From positions 180,001 to 212,000 of the forward strand of contig NBVN01000001.1 of assembly GCA_003056265.1 (NCBI GenBank): 32,000 nucleotides of DNA. Direction: 5' to 3'. The translations under genes and the position numbers were made by a program. The notes beneath the pieces were generated by a model. That model made no database searches. It had not been told where the DNA came from and saw only the letters and a program-made list of their open reading frames with translations. Position 1 is the stretch's first letter. Every line of letters starts with the position of its first letter. The stretch is from Zestosphaera tikiterensis (lineage in GTDB: Archaea; Thermoproteota; Thermoprotei_A; Sulfolobales; NBVN01). This document shows positions 6,709 through 11,900 of the stretch, piece after piece.

Positions 6709-6862
6709 TTAACTCCCTCAATCGCTTTTAGCCACTTCTTACAACTTACCTTCATCACCCCACCTATCTTCCACTCCCGCTTTTCAGGAGCCTAGCTTCA
6801 TAAGTCAAACCCTCCTTCTCACCCTTCACTAAACTCCCTCAAGCGAAGGTAGGAGCGGAAAA
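6709..6862 (-). repeat. G-rich intergenic element, copy A (inverted relative to the other copies)
   Basis: The minus strand reads CTTCGCTTGAGGGAGTTTAG...TTATGAAGCTAGGCTCCTGAAAAGCGGGAGTGG...GGTGATGAAGG...GCGATTGAGGGAGTTAATG. It shares colinear motifs with copies B-E. A TTTTTAAATTATTTT TATA-like box lies immediately upstream on the minus strand (6863-6880). Confidence 0.55.
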
Positions 6863-6910
6863 TAATTTAAAAATAATGAAAAGCTACGAAACTTGAGGAG
6901 GCGTCTAGCT

Positions 6911-7270
6911 ATGGGTTATGTTCGCGTTAAGGGAGTTATCGCTAATCCTTTGAAGCGAGAGGTTAGAGTGGAGGTAGAGTTCATAGCTGATACTGGAGCA
7001 ATCTACACGATGATATCCAAAACCATTGCTGAAAAACTAGGTCTAGAGATCATGGGTAAGCGTAAGTTCAGAGTTGCGAGCGGTGATGCGGTTGAGTATC
7101 CAGTAGCTGAAGCATACATAATCGTTGAGGATAGAGGAGTTACAAGCTTAGTAGTCATAGGGCCGGAGAACACTATTCCATTACTAGGCGTCACCACACT
7201 AGAACTACTGGGCTATCAAGTCGACCCAGTAACCGGTAAGTTGAAGCCGTTAGAGCTAATGATCCTCTGA
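6911..7270 (+). CDS. retropepsin-like clan AA aspartic protease (small archaeal AF_0612-like family)
   Basis: About 119 aa with the catalytic motif FIADTGAIYT (D-T-G-A), and the size and layout of single-domain retropepsins. The ATG at 6911 is preceded by GAGGAGG 9-10 nt upstream. The ORF-track TTG at 6893 is less likely. Confidence 0.75.
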   Translation: MGYVRVKGVIANPLKREVRVEVEFIADTGAIYTMISKTIAEKLGLEIMGKRKFRVASGDAVEYPVAEAYIIVEDRGVTSLVVIGPENTIPLLGVTTLELLGYQVDPVTGKLKPLELMIL

Positions 7271-7288
7271 AACACTGAAACACAAACC

Positions 7289-7321
7289 GCATATGCATAC
7301 ACTTTTACTTTTTGCATATGC
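7289..7321. repeat. two copies of the 8-bp palindrome GCATATGC (7289-7296, 7314-7321), plus a partial third copy TGCATATAC ending at 7334
   Basis: Read directly from the sequence. The site lies between the convergent protease gene and the small minus-strand ORF. Confidence 0.6.
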
Positions 7322-7335
7322 TTCATGCATATACT

Positions 7336-7542
7336 TCAGATGCTCCAAAACCTCGTTTTCTCGACCCATTCAATCTGAAGAAGGTTTGGAGTTGTTGTAA
7401 CTGCTAAGTACTCCATAGACATTAACAGGTTATCTGCACTCATCTCAGCAAACTCTTCTACCTGCCTAAGCACCTTTCCTTTATCAGCGAAAGATATCTC
7501 AAAGCCTCTGGCGGACCTCAGCCTAACCCTTCTCCAGAACAC
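7336..7542 (-). CDS. hypothetical protein (68 aa), possibly a gene remnant
   Basis: Open frame only, with no recognisable motifs. The upstream minus-strand sequence breaks into short frames. Confidence 0.25.
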   Translation of the reverse strand: MFWRRVRLRSARGFEISFADKGKVLRQVEEFAEMSADNLLMSMEYLAVTTTPNLLQIEWVEKTRFWSI

Positions 7543-7783
7543 TATACGACGCTCTTTACAACTAGTCCTGAGGGCTGTGGAAAGACTGCTCTATCCAGAC
7601 AGGCTTTCGAGAAGTGAAGATTCAGGGACGTAGCTGGAGACCTTGCAGTACCAGCACTAGACGAGAGGAGGTAGGCATTGTCGATCTAATGCTTAGATAG
7701 TTCTCAGCTCTTTCAAAGCATAGAAAACTAGCGGCGTTCATAGCTGACAATATTTTCCAAGCTGTTTCTAGAGTGTTGTAAAG

Positions 7784-8105
7784 CTTAAATGTTTTGGATA
7801 GTTTTCTATTTTGAGTGATGATGTTGTGGGTTAATGATCTCCTATCCTATGATCAGTTATGTTGTGCGGGTTTTGGGGGTTGATGTTCTCTATGACGTTC
7901 AATCAAATAGGAGGTGTGTGGCGCTCACTTCGACGGAACCCCATGAAGTACGGATGGAATCTACAAAATAGAGTTGAAAGCTGGATAGACGAGTCCCCTG
8001 CGACTAATGAGGGTATAGAGGTTGGAGATGAGGCAGTATGGCAGTTCACACTACGTAGGGAAGTTGCTGGAAGAGCTTTAGAAGAGGGGTGAGCGATTCA
8101 TCGCG
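7784..8105 (+). repeat. G-rich element copy E with promoter-like CTTAAATGTTTT box; candidate long leader of the first HEPN-MNT operon
   Basis: CTTAAATGTTTT at 7784-7795 is identical to 10232-10243. It is followed by a GT-rich GGTTTTG segment, GTGTGGCGCTCAC, CCATGAAG (7943) and AATGAGGG (8006), in the same order as in copy C. No TATA-like box lies within 60 nt of the HEPN start at 8116. Confidence 0.5.
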
Positions 8106-8115
8106 GTGAGCTTCA

Positions 8116-8541
8116 ATGTTTGACGTTGCAGAATATTCTAGGTGGATGGAGAGCGCGAGGAGGACTTTGGGATCTGCCCACGGAGATTTAGAGCGAGGTG
8201 ACTTTAACTGGGCTTGCTTCAAAGCTCATCAAGTCGCTGAGAAGGCTCTCAAAGCGTTGCTGTGGGGGGTGGGGGCCCCTACCCCTGGACACTCGCTACC
8301 AAAGCTCCTTAACAAGGTAAGGGAGGTGCTATCAGTTGAACCTCCTCAAGACGTGTATGAAGCCTGTATAAGGTTGAACAAGTTCTATATAGCTGCGAGG
8401 TATCCGAATGCGTGGAGCGAGGGAATTCCAGAAGAGTACTACTCACGTAGCGAAGCAGAGGAGGCTATACGCTATGCTGAAGTAGTCCTGAAGTGGGTGG
8501 AGGGGATATGGAGAGAGTTGTCGAGGTTAGGAGGAGGCTAA
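8116..8541 (+). CDS. HEPN domain protein (HEPN-MNT module 1)
   Basis: 141 aa. QVAEKALKALL, GHSLPKLL and the ...YIAARYPNAW blocks are typical of the small HEPN partners of minimal nucleotidyltransferases. It overlaps the downstream MNT gene. Confidence 0.85.
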   Translation: MFDVAEYSRWMESARRTLGSAHGDLERGDFNWACFKAHQVAEKALKALLWGVGAPTPGHSLPKLLNKVREVLSVEPPQDVYEACIRLNKFYIAARYPNAWSEGIPEEYYSRSEAEEAIRYAEVVLKWVEGIWRELSRLGGG

Positions 8542-8906
8542 AGGAGGAGGCTATTAGAAGAGCTAAGACGTTCTCCGAGTGCGTGAAGAATAAGTTGGGG
8601 AAAGTGACTACTATGGTCTTCGGTAGCTATGCAAGAGGAGACTTCAATGTTTGGAGCGATATCGATGTACTTGTGGTCGTCGATTCGGTTCTACCCAAAA
8701 ACCCGCTGAGGAGGCTCGACATAGTTGAGGAGTGTCTCCTTGCTGTAGGTGTCGTTGAGCCGATAATTCTCACAATCAATGAGTTCATGGAAAAACTACG
8801 TAAGAAGGATCCGGCGGTCGTGGAAGCAGTTGATGAGGGTATAGCAATATTAGACGACCTCGAACTGAGGAAGCAGATAGAAGAGGATTCAAGGACTTTT
8901 AACTGA
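8508..8906 (+). CDS. minimal nucleotidyltransferase (MNT, pol-beta superfamily), module 1
   Basis: VFGSYARGDFNVWSDIDVLVVV contains the GSxxRG and DxD motifs. The ATG at 8508 is preceded by GGTGGAGGGG. It overlaps the HEPN gene by 34 nt. Confidence 0.85.
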   Translation: MERVVEVRRRLKEEAIRRAKTFSECVKNKLGKVTTMVFGSYARGDFNVWSDIDVLVVVDSVLPKNPLRRLDIVEECLLAVGVVEPIILTINEFMEKLRKKDPAVVEAVDEGIAILDDLELRKQIEEDSRTFN

Positions 8907-8964
8907 AGACCCTTCGAATCGTGCGTGATGTATACTTCTAAACCTCCATATTGTCCTTTCACGA

Positions 8965-9115
8965 TAAGGATGAAGAATCCTGAACCCCCTCTGCCTTCGC
9001 CCCAGGGAGTTTAAGGCGATGAAGCCAGCTCCCCGAAAGCAGGGGTGGAGGAAACCATGAGAAATGAAGGCAAAAACAAAAGGATCAGACCTCTAGAGGA
9101 GAGAATAGGATTAGG
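8965..9115 (+). repeat. G-rich intergenic element, copy B
   Basis: Reads AAGGATGAAGAA, CCTTCGCCCCAGGGAGTTTAAGGCGATGAAGCCAGCTCCCCGAAAGCAGGGGTGGAGGAAACCATGAGAAATGAAGG. By eye it aligns with copy A (inverted) and copy C. Confidence 0.55.
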
Positions 9116-9337
9116 AAAAGAAGTATAGAGGGCTATACAGAACATCTCTAGTGATAGCTTATAACACAGTATAATAATAATAGAAACTATATTGCTGAGA
9201 AGTGTAATGAATACATTGCCGCCCAGCCGTAGCGCTAAGATACGAGTAAGTAACCTCTTCCTAACATACAGTACTGGAGACTATGGATCGTGCTTACATT
9301 AAGGTAGTTAATTATTGATTAGCTAAGATATGTTTAG

Positions 9338-9769
9338 ATATTAGGGTGGGGATTTCTGGAGAGGTTTGAGGAAGCGAGGAGGTGGTTTGCTCAAGCACTT
9401 AGGGATGTTAAGGCGGCTCGCGATAGTGTTGATGATGGGAATTACGAGTGGAGTAGTTTTCAGTCACATCAAGCAGCTGAGAAGGCGTTGAAGGCATTGC
9501 TTTACGCGCATGGGAGGAGTGCTTGGGGGCATGGCTTAGTAGAACTCCTAGATTATTTGAGGGAGGTTGAGGAGGTAGGTAGTGAGTTATATGTAGCTGC
9601 TAGAGAACTTGATAGGCACTACATACCGTCTAGGTACCCGAACGCTTTCGAGTCTGGATACCCGGGGCTCTACTACGATGAAGTAACTGCTAGGAGAGCC
9701 CTAGATAGCGCTAAGCTCATAATTGATTGGGTGAGAACACGTTTGAGAAGTCTTGGATTAGCGCTGTAG
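9338..9769 (+). CDS. HEPN domain protein (module 2) with no in-frame canonical start for the full-length domain
   Basis: The frame is open from 9338 and encodes ...FLERFEEARRWFAQALRDVKAARDSVDDGNYEWSSFQSHQAAEKALKALLYAHGRSAWGHGLVELL...RELDRHYIPSRYPNAF..., colinear with HEPN1 from its N-terminus. The first in-frame ATG/GTG/TTG is the TTG at 9488, which would delete helix 1-2. The GTG at 9346 is one nucleotide out of frame, just before a G4 run. Confidence 0.7.
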   Translation: MLGWGFLERFEEARRWFAQALRDVKAARDSVDDGNYEWSSFQSHQAAEKALKALLYAHGRSAWGHGLVELLDYLREVEEVGSELYVAARELDRHYIPSRYPNAFESGYPGLYYDEVTARRALDSAKLIIDWVRTRLRSLGLAL

Positions 9770-10137
9770 AGGAGGCGGTGAAGAAGATCAGGGAGAAGGT
9801 AGGGCTTGTGGAGGCAGTCATAGTCATCGGTTCCTGGAGCCGTAGTGGTGGAGGTGTGTGGAGCGATGTTGACGTACTCGTAGTTACCGATGAAGTAGAA
9901 GGTATGAACATCCTAGATAGGTTCGCTATAGCTTCCGAGCTCGACCTACGTAGGGTGGACGTATTCATGTACAGTTACAGTGAGTTAGAGTCCATGGCTA
10001 GGAAAGGCAATCCCCTAGCACTATCAGCACTCATAGAAGGGGTTAAGCTGATTTCAAGTAGAAGGGTAGATGAGTTAGCAAGGCGCATATCCAAGCACTA
10101 CATCAGGATAGGGAGGATGTGGAAAGCCGTAGACTGA
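9727..10137 (+). CDS. minimal nucleotidyltransferase (MNT), module 2
   Basis: VIGSWSRSGGGVWSDVDVLVVT contains the GS...G and DxD motifs. TTG start at 9727 overlaps HEPN2 by 43 nt. This is the same architecture as module 1. Confidence 0.8.
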   Translation: MGENTFEKSWISAVEEAVKKIREKVGLVEAVIVIGSWSRSGGGVWSDVDVLVVTDEVEGMNILDRFAIASELDLRRVDVFMYSYSELESMARKGNPLALSALIEGVKLISSRRVDELARRISKHYIRIGRMWKAVD

Positions 10138-10231
10138 AAGAAGAGAAATGACTCCAGAGGCTTGCTCTCTAGAGCGATCGACAAGCTGTGGATATATAGT
10201 CGCAACCTGTTCTGTATAATTCCTCGGTATT

Positions 10232-10625
10232 CTTAAATGTTTTAATTACTTTCTGTATACTCTTAAGTTTATGTGTTGGTTGAGTGGTTTTGTTTGGTGT
10301 TGGTGAGGGGTTTATCCACCTATAGGGTAGGTGGATCCCTGAGGTAGTATCGTAGAGATTAGGGGAGAGAGTGGGTAAGCGTGTGCGGGGGTGCTTGGGT
10401 CACCCCTAAGAGCCTCTGCTGTGAAGGATGAAGCCAGACAGAGCAGAGGAACAAAACATGAGGGGATGAAGAAAGTGATTAGGGAAATCGTTCAGACCGA
10501 ACCCTTAATGTATCAGTGTACCGGAACTAATATATGACCCTCCCCCGCTTTTAAAGGCGGGATTTTCGCTGCTGGGTCTTGAGCGATACCCCTCTCCTTA
10601 AGGGAGTTACGGGACACCACCAATC
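10232..10625 (+). repeat. G-rich element copy C: promoter-like box plus a hairpin-rich segment, with no downstream plus-strand gene
   Basis: CTTAAATGTTTT at 10232-10243. Hairpins at 10314-10336 (ATCCACCT/AGGTGGAT), 10388-10406 (GGGGTG/CACCCC), 10413-10449 (CCTCTGCT/AGCAGAGG), 10544-10561 (CCCGC/GCGGG) and 10566-10586 (TCGCT/AGCGA). Motifs GATGAAGCCAG (10427), CATGAGGGGATGAAG and GGGAGTTA (10602). Confidence 0.55.
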
Positions 10626-10829
10626 ATCGACCTTTAGATGATCTCAAGGCTTCGTGTGGGAGGCATTATGTAGGTTGCGTGTATGCTTTAGTTGATATTG
10701 CTTAAGTTTTACCTCCTACACATCAGCATTATCGCCGAGAATAAATTAGAAGCAATTACATAAAAACCTTCCCATTCCCGTCATAAATAGCGAAGCCTCA
10801 AATAAGTTGGTGAAGTTTAAAATGCTGGC

Positions 10830-11564
10830 TTAAACGGGTTTTGTTAGGAAGCCATTCCTTCTTAGGAAGTCTATCGCAATGTTAACTACTTCATCTTCCT
10901 TACCTTTAAGTAGATGCCCACCGCCGCGGATTATATGGAGTTCTGCTGTGAAGCCCTTCTCCAAGAGTTTCTTAAGCAGTAATTGCGACTGCTCTAAAGG
11001 TACCATAGTGTCTGAATCGCCGTGGATTATGAGTATATAGCCTGTCATCCTATCCACGTATGTTATCGGGCTGGATAGCTCGTATATGTCTTTACTTTCT
11101 TCCGGCGTTCCTATAGAGGATTTGACTAGATCTGCTACGTACCTTTGCGGGGTCCCCTTCTCAAACTTCGACAGGAAGTAGTATAGGTGGGCTAAGTCAA
11201 CCCATCCAGCCACGTCAATAACGAAGGAGACCTTCTCCTGAGTTGAGGTAAGTAACGCTATCGTACCACCTAACGAAACACCGAATAAACCCACTCTAAT
11301 CGGGTCTACGTTATCCAACGTTTTAATTTTCTTAAGTGCGTTAACAGCTACGTAAACTCCGTCGCTAGCGTCCGTATATTTAGGTGCTAAAGCTACGAAA
11401 CCGTTCTCAGCGAATTTCCTAGCGAAAACTTCAACGTCGTCCGGCGTTTGATTAAACGCATGTAAGACAACTACCCCCGGGTATCTACCCGGTTCCTTAG
11501 GCGTTACGGTATAGCCTATCATATCCGTTAATTTAGCCTTAACCACTTCATGCCTAAGCAACAT
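10830..11564 (-). CDS. alpha/beta hydrolase (dienelactone hydrolase / S9 peptidase-like)
   Basis: Nucleophile elbow GVSLGG, acid motif IHGDSD and histidine motif GGGHLL in canonical order. The ATG is preceded by AAATATTTAACTATTT about 25 nt upstream. Confidence 0.85.
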   Translation of the reverse strand: MLLRHEVVKAKLTDMIGYTVTPKEPGRYPGVVVLHAFNQTPDDVEVFARKFAENGFVALAPKYTDASDGVYVAVNALKKIKTLDNVDPIRVGLFGVSLGGTIALLTSTQEKVSFVIDVAGWVDLAHLYYFLSKFEKGTPQRYVADLVKSSIGTPEESKDIYELSSPITYVDRMTGYILIIHGDSDTMVPLEQSQLLLKKLLEKGFTAELHIIRGGGHLLKGKEDEVVNIAIDFLRRNGFLTKPV

Positions 11565-11624
11565 TTAAACCGCCCTCCGAAATAGTTAAATATTTGGTAG
11601 GTAATTATAGTTCTTGGTGGTTAG

Positions 11625-11865
11625 ATCTCACCTCGGATGTGGAGGGAAGGTGGGTAAAGCTCCGAAGGAGGTGGGTGTGAAGCCCTAGGCTTAAGATGTG
11701 TGGTTTCCCCTAAAGCTCGAGCGCCCCCATCACGTGGTGATTAAGGAGGTGATCCCTTGGTGGGGGACGCAAATGAGGGCTTTAGGCGGGGTTGCCACGA
11801 ATGGGGGTGAGGGCTGTAATATGCCACCGATGAACTCAAGAGGTGGCTGAACCTAATGAACCCCA
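11625..11865 (+). repeat. G-rich intergenic element, copy D
   Basis: GGTAAAGCTCCGAAGGAGGTGGGTGTGAAGCCCTAGG aligns with copy A GAAGGAGGG...TATGAAGCTAGG and with copy B GCTCCCCGAAAGCAGGGGTGG. AATGAGGGCTTTAGGCGG aligns with copy E AATGAGGGTATAGAGG. TATA-like GTAATTATAG at 11601-11613. Confidence 0.5.
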
Positions 11866-11866
11866 A

Positions 11867-11900
11867 AGCCTACATAGGCTTACAAATGCCTATGTAGGCT
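11867..11900. promoter_or_regulatory. perfect 13-bp inverted repeat AGCCTACATAGGC-N8-GCCTATGTAGGCT upstream of the ZIP transporter gene
   Basis: Arms at 11867-11879 and 11888-11900 are exact reverse complements. The repeat lies about 30-60 nt upstream of the TATA-like GTAAAGTTAAATAA (about 11927-11941) and 77 nt upstream of the ATG at 11977. Confidence 0.6.

Follow-up and report, generated by a model that had tools for sequence, protein, structure and literature searches.

The 32,000-nt stretch of Zestosphaera tikiterensis DNA analysed here (contig NBVN01000001.1, positions 180,001 to 212,000; hereafter the window) carries, between 6.7 and 11.9 kb, a group of small genes interrupted by five gaps. 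A clan AA aspartic protease of 119 aa (6893–7270, + strand; Pfam PF13975 and PF13650) converges with a 68-aa open reading frame (ORF), orf68 (7336–7542, − strand). Two HEPN-MNT cassettes, both on the + strand and both identified with Pfam, lie downstream: HEPN1 (8116–8541) with MNT1 (8493–8906), and HEPN2 (about 9347–9769) with MNT2 (9727–10137). The group is preceded by rpiB (PF02502; 6223–6704) and ends at a 412-nt spacer between divergent hydrolase and ZIP transporter genes. The protease matches a protein from a Z. tikiterensis metagenome-assembled genome at 100% identity, and three near-identical strain contigs, L082–L084 (98.8–100% identity), span parts of the region. From left to right, we refer to the gaps as A, E, B, C and D, and to A in inverted orientation as A'. 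A first-pass annotation had read all five as diverged copies of one G-rich, ORF-free element. Our analysis replaces this claim of a new five-copy RNA family with what is probably a mostly ordinary picture, a variable island of toxin-antitoxin (TA)-like cassettes and eroded insertion sequence (IS) ends.

The gaps are real, and they differ from ordinary spacers. Their GC content is 41–47% (45–56% for the cores delimited in the first-pass annotation), against 22–34% for the other 11 intergenic gaps, with one exception at 46%. A single ORF of at least 60 aa occurs in them, one of 77 aa in E; the first-pass annotation had described all five as lacking any. Their G>C skew, 0.16–0.53 on the strand proposed as G-rich, resembles that of the coding DNA of the window, which has a GC content of 45%, the same as the whole 32 kb, and a sense-strand skew of 0.20 ± 0.09. 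The G-richness that had been taken as a mark of the set is therefore a genome-wide signature of sense or transcribed DNA and does not define a family. Nor are the gaps GC-rich against the genome: their GC is like that of coding DNA, and only D, at 56%, stands out. The coding-like composition of all five fits formerly transcribed or coding sequence, as the E core demonstrably was.

Searches for known genes and RNAs returned little. ARAGORN found no tRNA or split tRNA in the window, and Rfam at gathering thresholds had no match anywhere in it. With Rfam in E-value mode, applied to the region and to A and B singly, we obtained sub-threshold noise only, save a weak HgcC hit described below. For box C/D small RNAs (sRNAs), a custom search over the entire window on either strand gave no candidate (C box RUGAUGA; D', C' and D boxes, with D as CUGA; guides of 10–13 nt). 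Ten of the longer stop-to-stop gap fragments, including orf68, had no Pfam match; a chimeric 1,037-aa query joining 19 gap fragments of at least 35 aa retrieved none of 5.8 billion proteins at E ≤ 10; and blastn against a plasmid collection found no match.

The five gaps are heterogeneous, and are not copies of one element or RNA. We compared all ten gap pairs in both orientations by Smith-Waterman local alignment against dinucleotide-preserving shuffles. Inverted A and B aligned with z = 3.8–4.1, a score equalled by 0–2 of 100–200 shuffles. The A–C pair reached z = 2.3 and all others 1.7 or less (1.4 or less for every pair involving D), none above the shuffled controls. With A' or B as nhmmer query, the partner was the reciprocal best match in the window (E = 0.002–0.003), and nothing was found in C, D or E. 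Covariance models of the E family and of A' with B each recovered their own members only in the window. The shared motifs divide in the same way. The string RATGAAGC(C/T)AG, reported from all five gaps, is absent from D and E; as ATGAAGCYAG it has just three occurrences in the 32 kb, those in A', B and C, all on the G-rich strand, with a shuffle mean of 0.12 and 0/100 shuffles reaching three. A second proposed motif, A(A/C)ATGAGR, is at chance (3 observed, 3.0 expected), and the GGGAGTT(T)A boxes, scored as GGGAGTTWA, are in marginal excess (3 observed, 0.8 expected, 7/100 shuffles as high). Shared 10-mers number nine among the five gaps against 2.3 expected (4/200 shuffles as high), an excess that stems from A, B and C only and is gone once A is left out.

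Gap E (7762–7984, + strand) appears to be an orphan, tnpB-less relic of an IS607-type element, akin to a miniature inverted-repeat transposable element (MITE), that keeps the omega-RNA scaffold region; the scaffold core is at 7844–7984 (+ strand). The DNA searched comprised 65 metagenome loci encoding HEPN1 relatives, together with contigs encoding protease relatives; individual loci are cited below by L numbers. By nhmmer, this gap matched L085:4440–4740 (E = 9e-13) and L095:2093–2305 (E = 1e-15 to 1e-17). A covariance model of the 136-nt core of the family, R1, scores gap E at 119 bits, and a second model, R2, at 84 bits; it is the sole member in the window for both. R1 also matches L151:438–560, which overlaps the 3' end of a 434-aa ORF with the Cas12f1-like TNB domain of TnpB. 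We fetched nine further tnpB loci, L155–L163, as relatives of the L151 TnpB. In L151 and each of the nine, R1 has a same-strand match ~170–50 nt ahead of the tnpB stop codon, at 18–42 bits; nine of these ten matches have E ≤ 1e-7, and the weakest, in L155, has E = 0.003. Upstream of tnpB, six of the nine loci carry a gene with Resolvase and helix-turn-helix domains (tnpA), the arrangement of IS607. TnpB relatives of ~430 aa annotated as 'IS605 OrfB' are common in Desulfurococcaceae, Thermogladius and Vulcanisaeta; none was found in viral contigs. Homology at the tnpB loci and the structure tests described next thus both point to an omega-RNA-bearing right end of IS607 type.

The structure of the E family was tested on eight distinct sequences, in an alignment that was fitted to the model and hence favours structure. 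Within it, 85% of cells are paired, compared with 67% in shuffles (0/500 as high) and 30–46% in slid controls. Double changes occur in 18/30 pairs, and hairpin 3 covaries in all eight of its pairs. At their 3' ends, the L085 and L095 copies share a terminal hairpin of 12 bp with four compensatory pairs, and complete elements have an equivalent terminal hairpin followed by CAAACGG.

Elsewhere, gene-less copies of this family have moved to new sites, interrupting genes in two other hot-spring archaea. The L085 copy splits the frame of a PF01972 (SDH_protease) gene in phase and in antisense orientation (...STPPDK / 276 nt / PIALVLHTPGG; L085:4393–4737), and the interrupted protease appears to gene callers as two ORFs. 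Its flanks read GCTTATCTGG and GCTTATCGGG. In L095, the copy disrupts a HEPN-MNT pair (L095:2037–2353): it lies in the 5' part of the MNT gene, whose frame resumes right after the element (...RRRM / element / LREKAIETARDF) with the MNT N-terminus cut off, and its flanks read GCTATAGAG and GCTGAGAG. All of the short flanking repeats start with GCT. Recombination at a short shared core is expected for a serine recombinase, and the GCT-starting flanks may reflect such recombination at a short core common to element and target, instead of true target duplication. Two further observations concern L156. A complete IS607-type element there is directly adjoined at its left end by a solo omega-RNA-type copy (L156:647–830; 50 bits), and a tRNA-like sequence (L156:2960–3050) follows its right end.

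Set against the TnpB omega-RNAs (reRNA/sotRNA) of the IS200/IS605/IS607 superfamily, gap E is alike in sequence and in covarying structure to the segment that overlaps the tnpB 3' end, on the same strand. Two differences concern the element itself. Whereas the scaffold of relatives leads into a terminal hairpin and the end of the element, this gap contains neither the 12-bp hairpin plus GGGAAAC of L085 and L095 nor the hairpin plus CAAACGG of complete elements. At a conserved kink-turn (K-turn)-like position it has GC in place of the GA of its relatives, the key A being changed to C (by eye). With the terminal hairpin missing and this key base changed, the window copy looks degenerate, and it is probably inactive. 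No tnpB or tnpA lies nearby, and for want of an adjoining cognate gene it is an orphan. Excising it in silico restores no ORF. By eye, its start resembles an IS607 left end (GCTGTTTC..., with a TATA-like GCTTAAAT): GCTGTTTCTAGAG...GCTTAAAT in the window corresponds to GCTGTTTCGTAG...TTTATAAGCTT in complete elements.

Related small elements are known. Archaea have sense-overlapping RNAs at tnpB 3' ends (sotRNAs) as well as intergenic copies derived from PATEs or transposon ends (PMC4615843). Like these PATE/MITE derivatives and the intergenic tnpB-3'-like non-coding RNAs (ncRNAs) of Pyrococcus and Halobacterium (PMC4615843), the E family consists of short (~220–280 nt), gene-less end sequences, and its copies are intergenic or, in L085 and L095, lie within genes with short flanking direct repeats. 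Unlike PATEs, which are defined for the IS200/IS605 type with a Y1 transposase, the family has an IS607-type (serine recombinase) parent; its terminal inverted repeats reach at best 8 nt (by eye), and the window holds one copy. We also considered archaeal box C/D and H/ACA sRNAs. A K-turn-like CCC-UAU-GA-U-[stem-loop]-U-GA-GGG and, close to the 5' part, a GUGAUGA box can be read by eye in the E family, but no C/D'/C'/D arrangement occurs anywhere in the window, and the family lacks ACA-box architecture and differs in length and fold. A separate observation is that positions 7815–7830 and L085:4504–4519 share an identical 16-nt block, CTGAGTGATGATGTTG, with the box-C-like GUGAUGA; neither L095 nor complete IS607 elements contain the block.

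A and B are two old copies of one 105–125-nt sequence in opposite orientation, as judged from their alignment and reciprocal nhmmer matches. A' occupies 6738..6862 (− strand), and B occupies 8978..9082 (+ strand), starting 72 nt downstream of the MNT1 stop codon. Together they flank a block of protease, orf68, E, HEPN1 and MNT1. The copies are ~65–70% identical, with indels of 1, 23 and 4 nt; none is a multiple of three, which argues against conserved coding. A' may form a long hairpin that places ATGAAGCTAG in its loop region, and RNAalifold gives it a fold in common with B, again a possible long hairpin, in which no more than two pairs are compensatory. A' also carries TTGAGGGAGTT(T)A at 6838–6848, a second copy of which lies outside the core at 6709–6722. 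A covariance model of the pair, R3, scores A' at 144 bits, as its construction ensures, and detects no other member in the window or in 581 kb of related hot-spring archaeal DNA. No A/B-like sequence lies next to the 65 HEPN loci, and an A-like element is absent upstream of the protease homologues in L085–L089. A strict A/B pattern had zero matches in viral and metagenome collections that do not include the source genome, although a JGI contig, Ga0079639_1007079, contains A. Among strains, the B core has one single-nucleotide polymorphism (SNP), at 9047; SNP density in gap B is 1.8%, not below that of the adjoining GT2 gene, and variation is patchy and hence uninformative on constraint. Most simply, from context and composition, A and B would be further debris of a non-autonomous element or the product of local duplication.

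Two other identities for A were considered and set aside. In L085 and L086, PaREP1 precedes the protease gene, yet a tblastn search for a PaREP1 relic in A gave noise. A CRISPR repeat in A' was suggested by a CRISPR-DR47 hit, which at 16.6 bits stayed below the threshold of 39 (E = 0.9 over 400 nt) and belongs to no tandem array. No cas domain was found in the 20 window ORFs scanned, a set that stops short of the ORFs at 24.6–32 kb.

Gap C falls into two parts. The left part (10232..10520, + strand) has no protein match and no significant alignment to other gaps. It opens with CTTAAATGTTTT, a TATA-like box similar to the start of E, and contains strong hairpins at 10312–10338 and at 10413–10449, the latter with GATGAAGCCAG in its loop, an exact 11-mer common to C and B. 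The segment 10400–10540 folds with z = −3.0, and a hairpin plus U-run lies at about 10543–10570. R2 gives the left part negative scores. The right part (10524..10645, − strand) resembles HgcC and may be the relic of a second right end, of IS1341 type (IS200/IS605). It scores 15.3 bits (E = 4) with Rfam HgcC, below the gathering threshold of 50. By nhmmer, gap C is linked to sequences upstream of protease homologues in L085 (E = 0.01) and L087 (E = 0.23), and the L085 homologue of the right part, L085:5717–5850(−), reaches 23 bits for both HgcC (23.1) and sot0042 and has a GCCC-UUCA-GGGC hairpin. Both sequences align to the 3' hairpin of HgcC (RF00062) and sot0042 (RF02656) and to the GGAGGAGGUCA tail; the L085 homologue keeps the UUCA tetraloop, whereas the loop of the window copy differs (UUUAAAA). 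According to PMC4615843, HgcC contains as a structural motif the right-end-like UUCA tetraloop known from IS1341-type (tnpB) elements. Scores of 15–23 bits against gathering thresholds of 50 and 88 do not establish membership in either family.

Gap D (11625..11865, + strand; GC 56%) lies in the hydrolase/ZIP spacer. It had no Rfam, protein or related-locus match, and the models matched it only on the opposite strand and at noise level (18 and 14.5 bits). Its fold is better than shuffles for 11720–11866 (z = −2.1) and not for 11600–11740 (z = +0.8). Apart from the weak links of C to L085 and L087, no C- or D-like sequence was found in the 581 kb of related loci.

The genes around the gaps combine mobility and damage. 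Protease DNA is ~80% identical across contigs with unrelated neighbours (L085–L089), and the protein has hundreds of homologues at 65–90% identity, some of them in Bathyarchaeia. It is paired with a small convergent ORF, orf68 in the window and in L088 and an RHH_12 protein in L086, and the protease and orf68 appear to form a portable two-gene module. Beside this module we note that the protease/orf68 spacer (7285–7338) contains repeated, partly palindromic GCATATGCAT / TGCATATACTTCA units (tandem period 13, two copies). The closest HEPN relative (L090) has 83% amino acid identity, with homology only from the HEPN start codon onward. HEPN2 is open in frame from 9338 to 9769 with no ATG, GTG or TTG before 9488, and its homology to HEPN1 starts near 9356 (CTG GAG AGG TTT...); either its start codon has been lost or a non-canonical start is used. 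rpiB is split into ORFs of 53 and 99 aa that lie in different frames. Three independent strain-level assemblies show this split too (called there as 48 + 99 aa), and it is therefore a real frameshift or pseudogene and no assembly error. The split rpiB and the HEPN2 frame without a start codon are thus further damage in keeping with a decayed island.

Taken together, we consider it likely that the 6.7–11.9-kb region is a small, variable, decaying island of portable TA-like cassettes and eroded mobile-element remains, with heterogeneous gaps. The island would sit between core genes of Z. tikiterensis. Gap E would descend from an IS607-type IS, with a serine-recombinase TnpA and TnpB, after loss of tnpB, and would keep the right-end part that in complete elements overlaps the tnpB 3' end and encodes the TnpB guide-RNA scaffold (omega-RNA/sotRNA). 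It may still provide a promoter towards HEPN1–MNT1. Of the three roles offered in the first-pass annotation, cassette-boundary or mobile sequence in a TA-bearing island comes close to the truth, as E-family copies lie beside or inside HEPN-MNT cassettes. The proposal of a structured ncRNA holds to the extent that gap E appears to encode a structured, covarying RNA, but no new family spans the five gaps, and a role as RNA partner or substrate of the HEPN proteins found no support. Much of what the first-pass annotation named as refuting it was in fact observed: nine of the ten pairs align no better than shuffles, and 581 kb of related DNA yielded no additional A/B copies. The statement that no known RNA family is matched agrees with the empty Rfam result at gathering thresholds; assignment of E to a known class, the TnpB omega-RNAs, nevertheless removes most of the novelty.

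Several points weigh against the reading as an island of debris. A left-end hidden Markov model (HMM) built without E fails to recover it, and both of its ends were read by eye. The window contains no tnpA or tnpB, tblastn with five TnpB proteins having returned noise only, and so no cognate gene accompanies the proposed relic. The HgcC-like label for the right part of C, far below the Rfam threshold, is a lead and not a membership. For A/B, the left part of C and D there is no positive identification, and 'debris' is inferred from their context and composition. Lastly, the ATGAAGCYAG motif in A', B and C, each time in or near a predicted hairpin loop, is left unexplained by island debris.

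This motif is the starting point for an alternative that we regard as unlikely, in which A', B and the left portion of C would be over-diverged relics of TnpB omega-RNAs or of IS607/IS605 right ends; most or all of the gaps would then be transposon ends, the same kind of sequence as E without being copies of one element. The hairpin 3 loop of L095 and of the L156 solo copy reads (A)UGAAGCUAGUGA, the motif of A', B and C. By eye, GCRGGRGTGGARG of A' and B looks like the GCGAGGTGGAAG that complete elements carry directly behind hairpin 3, and the hairpin of B is followed by GAAAGC, as in right ends ...GGGAAACGC; the weak HgcC likeness of the right part of C points the same way. However, R1, R2 and a 3'-module HMM yield nothing for A', B and C, nhmmer with A', B, C and D against the nine complete elements yields nothing, and the likenesses were all chosen by eye, after the fact.

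Decay of protein-coding genes offers another origin for A/B, the left part of C and D, with the G-rich strand as the former sense strand. Coding-like GC and skew, the damage to rpiB and HEPN2, and a likeness of A' and B in one frame, AP(E/R)K(R/Q)(E/G)W(K/R) after MK(L/P), would all fit. The empty Pfam search of ten fragments, the absence of any protein match for 19 fragments and the indels between A' and B, none of them a multiple of three, speak against it, and we consider it improbable. We give an equally low chance to the idea that A' and B are a functional pair, either two paralogues encoding small RNAs or inverted repeats at the borders of a cassette that allow it to invert or move. No other significant repeat occurs in the region, the two are inverted, they bracket a 2.1-kb block of portable genes, and a shared fold with two compensatory pairs is possible. 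Yet there are two copies only, ~65–70% identical with indels and without relatives in 581 kb; their best-conserved blocks are internal and not terminal; the block contains no recombinase; A' has no good promoter on its strand (by eye); and strain SNP density in gap B is not reduced.

There is a slim chance that A', B and the left hairpin of C represent an undescribed class of small element or RNA with an AUGAAGCYAG loop, tnpB-independent descendants of guide RNAs kept beside HEPN-MNT genes because they serve the host or the cassette, for example in regulation or in cassette exchange. Slimmer still is the chance that the five gaps are diverged copies of one new structured ncRNA or long-leader family, perhaps working with HEPN RNases: their composition, coding-like or structured-RNA-like and unlike that of spacers, the motif common to A', B and C, the modest 10-mer excess and the better-than-shuffled folds of some segments (z = −2 to −3) are outweighed by chance-level scores in 9/10 pairwise alignments, models from E or A/B that miss the other gaps, a motif excess that disappears without A, the separate, identified origin of E, and the lack of A/B-like sequence beside 65 other HEPN loci.

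For the island of cassettes and IS remains, the kind of element in gap E is known, and it is the particular family that escapes Rfam at gathering thresholds. The IS607-type TnpB omega-RNA scaffold of Desulfurococcaceae-like archaea gains a structure supported by covariation, and gene-less copies of this scaffold interrupt genes in two other archaea. Orphan copies with coding-like GC and skew can mislead ncRNA scans in AT-leaning thermophile genomes. The A/B pair and the thrice-repeated ATGAAGCYAG are the small observations that remain without explanation.

At the right edge of the region, ZIP homologues of the closest genomes are only 38–54% identical and share no common neighbours in a synteny comparison. 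Immediately beyond gap D, positions 11867–11900 form a perfect inverted repeat, 13 bp per arm around an 8-nt spacer (AGCCTACATAGGC ttacaaat GCCTATGTAGGCT), ~75 nt upstream of the ZIP zinc-transporter gene, which could be an operator or a terminator.

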